A DNA stretch of 64,000 nucleotides from Vulcanimicrobiota bacterium (GTDB lineage Bacteria > Vulcanimicrobiota > Vulcanimicrobiia > Vulcanimicrobiales > Vulcanimicrobiaceae): assembly GCA_963820825.1 (NCBI GenBank), contig CAWGBN010000002.1:32001-96000 (forward strand), written 5' to 3'. The position numbers were made by a program. Within the stretch, counting starts at the first letter, position 1, and each line of letters starts with the position of its first letter. This document shows positions 27,001 to 30,000 of this stretch, in pieces.

Positions 27001-30000
27001 GCGCTCCTCTCCCCGCCCTGGGCCCTCCGAGCCTGGCGGCACTCGCGACAGCGCAGCGGCTGGTTCGCGAAGCCCTTCTCGGCGAAGAACACCTGCTCTC
27101 GCTCGGTGAAGATGAACTCGTTCCCGCAGTCCTTACAGCTAAGAATCTTATCTTCCAACGCTCTACTCCCCGTGCAGCTCGAACTGCGCTACATGCGACT
27201 AAGGTCACTTAGTTCCTGCGGGCCCCTGCACGGGTGACGGACGCGGCGGCGCTCAGTAGCGCAGCGGCGGCAAGAGCGGCTCCGTAGCCCTTGTCGCCGC
27301 CCTGCGGCGAGGCACGCTCCGTCGCCTGCGCGAGCGTCTCGGTCGTCAAGACGCCGAACCCGATCGGGGTCCCCGTCGCGAGCTGAACGTCCATAATCCC
27401 TCTGGCGCACTCGCCGGCGACGTACTCGAAGTGGGGCGTCTCGCCTCGCACGACAACCCCCAGCGCGACGACCGCGTCGAAGCGATCCGAGGCGATGAGA
27501 TTGCGGCACGCCAGCGGGAGTTCGAAGCAGCCCGGCACCTCGAAGAGCGCGACGTCGTCGTCGCCGACGTTGCAGTCGCGCAACGCGCGTTTGGCGCCAT
27601 CGACCAGCATATCGGCCAAGTCGCCGTAGAATCGCGCGGCGACGATCGCGAAACGCCGGCCCGCGCAGTCGGGCGCCGGCAGCACTCCGCCGCCGCCCTT
27701 CACGATGCCGCGACTTCGTCGATCATATGACCGAGCTTCGAGCGCTTGGTGTCGATGTAGTGTTTGTTATGCGCCGTCGGCGTCGTCTGCAATGGGACGC
27801 GGCCGACGATGCGCAGACCGTATCCCTCCAGCCCGAAGATCTTCTTCGGATTGTTGGTAATGAGCCGCATTTCGCGCACGCCGAGATCGGCGAGGATCTG
27901 CGAGCCGATGCCGTAGTCGCGTTTATCGATCGGAAGTCCCAACGCAATATTCGCCTCGACCGTATCGGCGCCGCGGTCTTGCAGCTCGTAGGCGCGCAGC
28001 TTATCGGCCAGGCCGATGCCGCGCCCTTCCTGGCGCAGATAGAGTAAGACGCCGCGCCCCTCGCGAGCGATCATCTCCATCGCGCCGTCGCGCTGGGCGG
28101 CGCAGTCGCAGCGTACGGAGTGCAGAGCATCGCCGGTCATGCATTCGGAGTGAACGCGAACGAGCAGCTCCTTGCCGCTGCCGATCTCGCCCATGACCAG
28201 TGCGACGTGCGTGTTCTCGTCGATCGTGGTGGTGTAGGCTACGCCCCTCCACTTGCCGATCGTCGTCGGCAGATCGAATTCCGCGATCCGCTCGACCAGC
28301 TTCTCCGTGCGCATCCGGTACGCAATCAGGTCCTTAACGGTGATCAGCTTGAGTGAATGCCGATCGGCGTAGCTGCGCAAACCCTCGAGGCGTTCCATCG
28401 TGCCGTCGTCGGCCATGATCTCGCAGATGACGCCGGCGGGATAGAGGCCCGCCAGTCGCGCTAAGTCGACCGCCGCCTCGGTCTGCCCGGCGCGCACAAG
28501 CACGCCGCCGTCGCGCGCGCGCAGCGGAAACGTATGTCCGGGGCGCAGGAAATCGGCCGCGCGCGCTTCGGGATCGAGCAGTTTGGTAATCGTCGCGGCG
28601 CGGTCGTGCGCCGAGATGCCGGTCGTCGTGATGTCGCGCGCCTCAACCGAAACGGTGAAGGCTGTTTCGTGGAGGGCGGTGTTGTCGCGAACCATCGGCG
28701 GGATGTGGAGATCGTCTAGCCGCGCGCCGACCATCGGCACGCAAATCAACCCGCCCGCGTGTTTGCGCATGAAGTTGATCGCTTCGGGCGTGACCATCTG
28801 CGCCGCCATGACGAGGTCGCCTTCGTTCTCACGATCCTCGTCGTCGAGCACCACGACCATCTTCCCGGCACGAACATCGGCGATCGCCTCCGCGATCGAA
28901 TCGAAGGGCCCGTCCTCCTCGGTCAGCTGCTCGCCGAGCGAGGGAAAGAGCTGGGTCAGCCGCTGCAGCGTGCGATAGGACGGCTCCCGCCGCCCGGCGC
29001 GCAGCAGAGAGATCGCGGATTCGGTGAGGCCGGCGGTCTCGGCCACCTCGGCGGCACTGAGACCGGCCGCATTCATCGCCTCGTTCAGCAGATCGGCAAA
29101 AGCACTCACCCATCCAGCCTAGGGGCTACTTTACAAATGTCAAGTCGCGGAGCCCGGGAACACGCTAGCGCGAATATGCGGAATCAACTCCGACCGCTTG
29201 CGGCCCGTGAACGACCATCGCCTTGACGCGGCTCTTGCCGCGTCCGTTGCGCTCGGCCATGCCGAACACCAACGTCTTGCCTTCGGTCGGCCCGTGCTTC
29301 ATCTTGCGGAACCCGAGGCCCGTGGTCATCGTGGCCTTGCGGCGACCGCCGACGAAGGTTTCGTCCGCTTCGATCTCTCCGTCGAACATACGGTCATCGG
29401 TCGGAGCCATCGCCTCGCGGATGCGATGCAGCATGAACCAAGCCGTCTTTTGCGTGTACGCCAAGGGCGCGGCCTAGCTCATGCGAGGACGTTCCGTTCT
29501 TCGTGTTGGCGAGGAACCAAACGGCGGGGAGCCACTTGCTCAGCGGAAGCGGGCTGTCCTCAAAGATCGAGTTGACCTTGACCGAGAACTGCCGCTTGCA
29601 GTCCTTGCAGCGCCAAATCTTGCGGTCTTGATAAACTGGACGCTAGCCGACCCGCAGCCCAAGCGCGGGCAAGCCACGCCGTGCGGCCACCGGATTTTGA
29701 TCGCGTAGGCGTGAGCTCGGTCGGGGTCCGCAAAGTAGGTGACGGCTTCGAGCAGGGTGGTCGGCGTCGTTTCCATGCACCAAGCGTATACTCGCCGAGT
29801 GCCAACTGGGTGGCATTTGGTGCGTCAGCTATATCATTCCCACAAATGTCAAGCCACCGAACGCGCAGGGCTGGTACAGGTTCGATGACCCAGCGCACTA
29901 AAATTAGCCGTCGTTCCCCCAAGAAAGTTTGGGCACCATGCGCACTTTTCTGTCGATCCTAAAGGCGTCGCCCGGGTTCGCCGCGCTCCTTTTCGGTGCG

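Follow-up and report, generated by a model that had tools for sequence, protein, structure and literature searches.

A riboflavin enzyme as candidate repressor of its own promoter: RibBA with an N-terminal XRE domain and a cognate palindrome in Vulcanimicrobiaceae

How is the synthesis of riboflavin controlled in a bacterium whose RibBA enzyme carries a DNA-binding domain and whose ribBA promoter carries a palindrome? This question is raised by a locus of a soil bacterium belonging to the Vulcanimicrobiaceae (genome G000), which was studied within a window of 64,000 nucleotides (contig CAWGBN010000002.1, positions 32,001 to 96,000; window coordinates are used throughout). A preliminary description of this DNA had proposed an enzyme-repressor which controls its own operon as a substitute for the FMN riboswitch. 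The individual parts of this proposal fared differently.

The fused enzyme and its promoter

The gene and the protein domains encoded by it are located as follows:
27700 to 29109, minus strand: HTH-ribBA gene, 469 amino acids, GTG start
28942 to 29109, minus strand: XRE/Cro-type helix-turn-helix (HTH) domain, residues 1-56 (Pfam HTH_3/HTH_31; five helices with a pLDDT of approximately 76-91 in the model)
28972 to 29031, minus strand: turn and core of the recognition helix, residues 27-46 (GLTESAISLLRAGRREPSYR), delimited for dN/dS
28318 to 28890, minus strand: DHBP synthase domain (RibB) with intact catalytic motifs (Pfam, motifs)
27793 to 28293, minus strand: RibA (GTP cyclohydrolase II) domain with intact RxHSEC, CDC and QEGRG motifs (Pfam, motifs)

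That RibBA is fused to an N-terminal XRE domain was already known from the preliminary description and is borne out by the reading frame. Pfam detected HTH_3 at residues 10-55 (30.4 bits, cut-off 23), along with HTH_31 (3-55), DHBP_synthase (74-264) and GTP_cyclohydro2 (273-439), and in NCBIfam the protein was assigned to PRK09311 RibBA (621.9 bits, cut-off 569), with TIGR00505 and TIGR00506 also above their cut-offs. All ten of the ten catalytic motifs checked are present in the window protein. Among the 75 full-length HTH-RibBA loci, the RibA/zinc motifs were found without exception (75/75), and strict regular expressions recovered the RibB motifs in 66-75 of them. The HTH has its best PDB sequence match in a DdrO-type XRE protein (E 2e-4). 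The model of the full-length protein is of moderate quality (pLDDT 68.7, pTM 0.56), and a two-copy prediction of residues 1-66 as a homodimer gave a score of 0.01, which speaks neither for nor against a dimer. Previously, 557 database proteins had been counted as matching the HTH-linker region; a recount yielded a different figure, 392 homologs among 679 candidates.

To judge from pooled pairwise estimates on the 75 loci, the core of the recognition helix (dN/dS 0.082) is conserved like the catalytic RibB domain (0.089), which indicates purifying selection at the level of an enzyme. Synonymous sites are near saturation in these loci (dS approximately 1.0-1.3). The linker between HTH and RibB revealed a dN/dS of 0.57, 34% identity and a variable length, arguing against a rigid coupling of the HTH to the enzyme.

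Upstream of the start codon, three elements overlap or follow each other:
29129 to 29144, no strand assigned: candidate operator, a 7-2-7 palindrome reading CTTGACA-TT-TGTAAAG on the minus strand (sequence, position weight matrix, conservation)
29138 to 29143, minus strand: -35 hexamer TTGACA, which is the left arm of the palindrome (sequence)
29116 to 29121, minus strand: predicted -10 hexamer TAGGCT, separated from the GTG by 6 nt (transcript presumed leaderless)

The candidate operator ends 19 nt before the HTH-ribBA start codon. Its position on the -35 box had been given correctly, whereas the sequence previously stated, CTTGACA-N2-TGTCAAG, deviates from the window site by one base. From 94 loci, 8 duplicates, 4 unfused and 2 cut genes were removed, and 79 of the remaining 80 had upstream DNA and a site. 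The window form CTTGACA-TT-TGTAAAG is the commonest one (25/79), while CTTGACA-N2-TGTCAAG occurs exactly in 11 of the 79 loci. Within the 2.98 Mb genome, the ribBA site is the only one with at most one mismatch and the top match of the weight matrix (27.7, next 21.7), which agrees with the earlier statement that a good match in a promoter position exists in G000 only here. The arrangement TTGACA-16 nt-TAGGCT-6 nt-GTG is compatible with a leaderless promoter, and 72 of the 79 loci have a TAnnnT hexamer downstream of the -35 box, 16-18 nt away from it and 6-8 nt short of the start codon. A generic promoter scan omitted the ribBA promoter because TAGGCT matches only 3/6.

The neighboring genes are arranged as follows:
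27209 to 27703, minus strand: ribH, coding for lumazine synthase and overlapping the end of ribBA; it follows ribBA in every locus with sufficient DNA (48/48)
26862 to 27158, minus strand: zf_Tbcl (double treble-clef zinc-finger) gene after ribH, in the same position in 24 of 48 loci
35338 to 37051, minus strand: ribD-ribE, 6 kb upstream and separate from ribBA, without a comparable site

In the window genome, no operator-type site was found before ribD-ribE. Hence, the claim that the protein controls its own operon can be retained for ribBA-ribH and has to be abandoned for ribD-ribE. The segment between ribE and ribBA (31099-35341) harbors a TetR-MFS pair, two genes for zinc dehydrogenases and one for a thioesterase. 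In two other loci (L081 and L083), ribE ends 131 and 195 nt upstream of ribBA, respectively.

Conservation and loss of the palindrome together with the HTH

The family was surveyed with residues 1-120 of the window protein as query in 160 genomes. A match extending over the HTH into RibB was obtained in 146 genomes, and since the HTH is also present in the weaker-matching G209 and G254, the fusion exists in at least 148 of the 160, confirming its conservation across the family. G252 possesses the HTH as well and was left out of the count as an unpublished genome; in G058 the gene is cut by a contig end, seven genomes gave no match with this query, and in three (G111, G168, G181) ribBA is devoid of the HTH. 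Outside the family, the fusion was detected in 5 of 5 sister-family genomes. In the next family (f3), no fusion was observed; 11 of 11 genomes were unfused, and in the survey with residues 1-120 all 18 f3 genomes (18/18) scored only at the level of the RibB part. Four f3 loci examined revealed the gene order ribD-ribE-ribBA-ribH. Seven unpublished genomes are included in the tally of the survey with residues 1-120, one each in the f3/sister-family survey, in the scan of 101 genomes for the site pattern and in the riboswitch scan of 41 genomes, and three in one further tally; the conclusions are independent of the unpublished genomes. G037 and the second copy of G029, considered as partly fused, turned out to be unfused. 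In G029, this second ribBA (L027, G029:C136) exists besides a fused copy and has no site; the gene ahead of it presumably encodes a protein resembling a flavin oxidoreductase.

On the RibB tree, the HTH-less genes are nested inside the fused clade (support 99/98), with G168 and G181 grouping with the fused G293/G295 (SH-aLRT 96), and a clade comprising only fused genes was rejected (p-AU 5.6e-4; quick tree, 27 rows). A site was not detected in 10-12 kb of DNA of G111, G168 and G181, while three fused congeners of G168 have retained it. The phylogeny thus indicates that the HTH head was lost in these genomes and that the operator was lost along with it, which may have occurred in one or two events. 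A search of these genomes for a standalone copy of the HTH gave weak generic matches only.

The preliminary description had cautioned that the palindrome includes the -35 box, which is conserved anyway. Indeed, the left arm is exactly TTGACA and our site finder was anchored on TTGAC, so the site might be an ordinary sigma-70 -35 box with a right flank that is due to chance or structure, the HTH having another role. Such an explanation is very improbable and already largely refuted by the right half-site. The latter lies within the promoter spacer and is nearly invariant in the 79 loci (G11 79/79, T12 77/79, A14 79/79, A15 78/79), with flanking columns below 0.5 bit. Among 20 promoter-like sites of G000 composed of TTGACA and TAnnnT, only the one of ribBA has a complete right half (6/6); the other 19 do not exceed 4. 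The HTH-less G111 has kept the promoter (TTGACA-17-TAGCCT-6-ATG) and lost the right arm, which reads GTTTGCT. Moreover, 5 of the 79 loci as well as G254 have an auxiliary site 28-30 bp further upstream and thus away from the -35 box; in L088 this auxiliary site is even better than the main site. Finally, other types of HTH fused to RibB each pair with a palindrome of their own, unrelated to this one and situated on the -10 box or upstream of -35 (see below). Of 101 family genomes, 76 contain a match to a strict site pattern, in nearly every case a single one, which adjoins ribBA where coordinates are comparable; a reversed control pattern gave 9 matches. Some of the 25 genomes lacking a match have variant sites, and three lack the HTH. 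Family genomes thus contain essentially one operator site each.

Another peculiarity of the site is its association with IS1595 elements. In the window, two features adjoin the operator:
29145 to 29841, minus strand: truncated, frameshifted remnant of an IS1595-family element inserted at the operator (Pfam DDE_Tnp_IS1595, reading frames, end motif)
29842 to 29853, no strand assigned: stranded copy of the first 12 bases of the operator, on the target-duplication side (sequence)

Repeated insertions with a duplication of the central 8 bp were identified in the window (29145-29853), in L131 (2394-4568) and in L330, L331, L031 and L043. In G170, the central 8 bp of the operator flank the element on both sides, and the CTTG at the end of the element restores the left arm; G147 and G092 carry similar insertions with a damaged -35 box. 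The terminal four bases are unequal between the two ends in several IS1595 copies. Judging from these junctions, the ribBA operator is an insertion hot spot for IS1595, which accounts for the variable DNA between ribE and ribBA. A second IS1595-like element of G000 (contig C3, approximately 29440-31470) has GTCG ends and the duplication AGTATATG; it seems to be inserted in the end of another element.

The palindrome might also be the footprint or target of IS1595 rather than an operator. IS end-like sequences lie immediately beside it in 15 of 78 loci (background 0.2%), in G170, G147 and G092 it is restored by element ends together with the duplicated 8 bp, and the window genome itself carries a remnant there. 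We regard this explanation as highly unlikely: the right arm, on the host side, cannot originate from an insertion, the site is preserved in the 63 of 78 loci that show no IS end, neutral footprints would have decayed at a dS of approximately 1.0-1.3, and the alphaproteobacterial sites have other sequences. Additional sites in Vulcanimicrobiales, considered as a wider regulon, proved to be copies made by the element (G170, G147, G092) or unlinked singletons.

Related fusions, further targets and the FMN riboswitch

A profile search of 1.84 billion representative proteins, of which the best 150 matches were examined, revealed two HTH-RibB proteins with other heads. One of them led to Hyphomicrobiales, for which 80 of 111 loci were kept, besides 125 proteins and 39 further loci. 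These fusions are HTH-RibBX proteins; the RibA/zinc-cysteine motifs are kept in none of the 72 full-length sequences. Their RibB domains branch apart from those of Vulcanimicrobiales (100/100), a joint clade of both fusions was rejected (p-AU 9e-8), and the two heads, at 30% identity, resemble each other no more than XRE/Cro domains do in general. The simplest reading is an independent fusion in the two lineages, with domain exchange as a conceivable alternative origin; on the tree evidence, RibB-family enzymes acquired this design on two or more occasions. A fragment of 206 amino acids (P0163) has a third type of XRE head and a RibB domain grouping near Acidobacteriota. No second fusion of this type was found, as 80 loci matched its RibB part and none its HTH; one exception among them was a fusion of the Vulcanimicrobiales type. 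Fusions in reverse order, with RibA ahead of RibB, were noticed in P0143, P0172, P0176, P0191 and P0198.

With the alphaproteobacterial fusions added, recognition helices and sites can be compared across the lineages. At a maximum of one mismatch, the ESAIS helix pairs with TTGACAnnTGTnAA in 77 of 78 loci, the GRVSQ helix with ATTAG-n5-CTAAT on the -10 box in 56 of 58 and the ASVTAL helix of Roseibium with TTCAGTnnnACTGAA in all 19 (19/19), while no match falls off the diagonal of the helix-site table; each of the three diagonal patterns was derived from the very group that it scores, making the comparison partly circular, and kin are not independent. New loci gave the same picture. Of 17 Xanthobacter/Azorhizobium loci whose helix is of the ASVTAL type, 16 have the Roseibium site that was predicted for them (at most one mismatch), and in Microvirga-type loci, where the helix is changed to TPGA(V/I)TQ, the symmetrically changed site TTTAGTtttACTAAA was present in 21 of 22. 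Shuffled controls matched in 20 of 7800 cases. From these pairings it appears that each of the four types of recognition helix has its own palindrome. The site covers the -10 box in Aestuariivirgaceae, and the main Roseibium site is located upstream of -35. In the alphaproteobacterial fusions, start codons follow a few bases after a -10-like hexamer. An mRNA without a leader has no room for a 5′ riboswitch, and this may be the reason why control by a protein and leaderless promoters occur together in all fusion lineages seen.

This leads to the relation between fusion and FMN riboswitch (RF00050). The riboswitch, formerly reported for none of 41 family genomes, was again not found in any of 41 relatives (0/41), including the 11 unfused f3 genomes (0/11), nor in the 151 genomes of the phylum, fused or not (0/151); the search of the 151 scored only 19 candidates per genome, and the control was detected in 7 of 14 cases. 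Positions 24000-42000 of the window gave no Rfam match. By contrast, 4 of 10 alphaproteobacterial genomes with a fusion contain RF00050. Because unfused relatives also lack the riboswitch, there is no complementary distribution with the fusion, and in Roseibium both occur together. The claim that the fusion stands in place of the riboswitch is therefore not supported: it seems to fill a gap in the phylum, and a replacement is not demonstrable.

In the Roseibium group, the site is located at most 75 nt upstream of four of four FMN riboswitches of the transporter type (L303, L324, L325, L326) and of none of three of the other type, which presumably lead ribH2. A gene for an EamA-family membrane protein follows the riboswitch in three of the four loci; in L325 no such gene could be read in frame. 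RibN is, as we assume, an EamA-family protein. The Roseibium gene was taken as the transporter gene ribN because alphaproteobacterial ribN is reported (PMC4418817) to carry an FMN riboswitch. Apparently this riboswitch-led gene is under double control, and the spread of the site to it suggests a riboflavin signal. This is the only evidence for control beyond the own gene, and it comes from another lineage. No second target was detected in Vulcanimicrobiales, Microvirga, Xanthobacter or Aestuariivirgaceae. Extra sites in the latter three are at chance level and, where examined, not at riboflavin genes; a wider regulon of Microvirga and Xanthobacter was discarded as the sites lie within coding DNA or beside genes that change from one genome to the next. 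In genus g17, a conserved TGTAAATGATTGACA box on a leaderless promoter (L103:1490-1540, L104:1490-1540) shares a half-site with the ribBA palindrome and precedes a gene that is, by its motif, presumably Fur-like. It was rejected as a regulon member since the box is arranged differently.

Proposed mode of action and comparison with known regulators

Taking gene, promoter and site together, HTH-RibBA probably functions as a bifunctional enzyme and, in addition, represses the leaderless ribBA-ribH transcript by which it is encoded. The preliminary idea of an enzyme-repressor is thus supported, as the cognate palindrome tracks the HTH, and autorepression is the most likely mode of action. The oligomeric enzyme would bring two HTH heads together on the two arms of the palindrome, where they would block sigma region 4 at the -35 box, so that more free RibBA would result in less ribBA-ribH transcription. 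In some lineages, the second site 28-30 bp upstream may add cooperativity. A pathway ligand, either a flavin or GTP or its product in the cyclohydrolase domain, might bind to the enzyme module and shift DNA binding. This last step would make the protein a true trigger enzyme; it is the most speculative one and, if repression is granted, has slightly better than even prospects. Whether ligands gate DNA binding is, on balance, about an even matter: the repeated origin on one enzyme family, the Roseibium transporter site and reports on a regulation of RibB by RibX speak for it, the loose linker and the single target against it. A more general idea, that RibB-family enzymes with an N-terminal HTH are flavin-pathway transcription factors which evolved repeatedly, with RibA or RibX sensing the ligand and thereby gating leaderless promoters, falls somewhat short of an even chance.

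It is possible, if rather unlikely, that the HTH binds and represses but senses nothing else than the concentration of its own protein, which might go back to a small autoregulated XRE gene that landed with its operator before ribBA and became fused to it. Such a level-only homeostat would be in agreement with a single target per genome, the gene itself, with the loose linker between HTH and RibB and with an operon that is split between ribE and ribBA by an internal promoter (L081, L083). In Vulcanimicrobiales, where the own operon is the sole target and ribD-ribE has no site, a link to the flavin status is missing. On the other hand, such a head was gained by RibB-family enzymes no fewer than two times (p-AU 9e-8), with P0163 as a third, single fragment, and the Roseibium site at the riboswitch-led transporter gene points to a riboflavin signal.

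Activation in place of repression is improbable. The site covers the -35 hexamer in Vulcanimicrobiales and the -10 box in Aestuariivirgaceae, and the spacers of 16-18 nt are unlike the long promoter spacers used in MerR-type activation. What might nevertheless suggest an activator are the main Roseibium site upstream of -35, the weak -10 boxes in the Vulcanimicrobiales lineage and the precedent of archaeal RbkR, for which activation with release by FMN has been proposed (PMC5397151).

Compared with described proteins, the window protein clearly belongs to the XRE/Cro class (HTH_3 above cut-off, five helices in the model) and to RibBA. The best fold match was RibBA PDB 4I14, and all catalytic motifs are present; compared to plain RibBA, it possesses an additional HTH and linker of 65 residues at the N-terminus, and no HTH is described in the solved RibB/RibBA entries among the fold matches listed. 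The Hyphomicrobiales fusions belong to RibBX of Proteobacteria (PDB 6MNZ; 0/72 with zinc cysteines), from which the window protein differs by its intact RibA domain. Regulation of the RibB domain has been reported for RibX, and an HTH on RibBX is not mentioned in the accessible portions of these sources (PMC10012899; bioRxiv 10.1101/2025.05.05.652280). The FMN riboswitch presumably serves the same end, limiting riboflavin synthesis, but is an RNA that needs a leader, and in Roseibium it co-occurs with the operator. In PMC5397151 and in reviews, bacterial riboflavin control is described as riboswitch-based, with the global regulators Fur and IscR in some species. In the literature searched, which included the available parts of PMC9478397, PMC11475020, PMC13028884, PMC12542839, PMC12855090 and PMC8536739 and had subscription papers, supplements, the original RibBX papers and RegPrecise outside its scope, no HTH-RibBA or HTH-RibBX regulator was found. 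If the more general idea of ligand-sensing RibB-family regulators is true, bacterial riboflavin synthesis would have a protein regulator dedicated to it, and the RibX domain would have a sensing role. For riboswitch-less lineages there is now a specific protein that can be tested, along with its 16-bp site and helix-site pairs found in nature. HTH-RibBX is present in the cultured genera Xanthobacter, Roseibium, Bosea, Microvirga and Azorhizobium and hence directly testable; it bears on the hitherto unexplained RibX domain and provides a simple handle on flavin overproduction.

The enzyme-regulator fusion, the retained catalytic residues and the candidate operator which tracks the HTH are traits of trigger enzymes. 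Sequence comparison thus suggests a very probably functional autorepressing enzyme of RbkR/BirA-like design, a variant of the trigger enzymes not found in the literature searched. BirA, NadR and PutA are cofactor or amino-acid enzymes whose N-terminal DNA-binding domain represses their own pathway (PMC5397151); they act in other pathways, and ligand control is shown for them, but for HTH-RibBA is a proposal. The closest system is RbkR of Archaea, which has the same enzyme-regulator design built from different parts: according to PMC5397151, it combines a winged HTH with a CTP-dependent riboflavin kinase, acting at a late step. Its domains are absent from the window protein, for which Pfam shows HTH_3, DHBP_synthase and GTP_cyclohydro2 only. 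HTH-RibBA, by contrast, joins an XRE HTH to the enzyme of the first steps, is bacterial and is positioned as a repressor.
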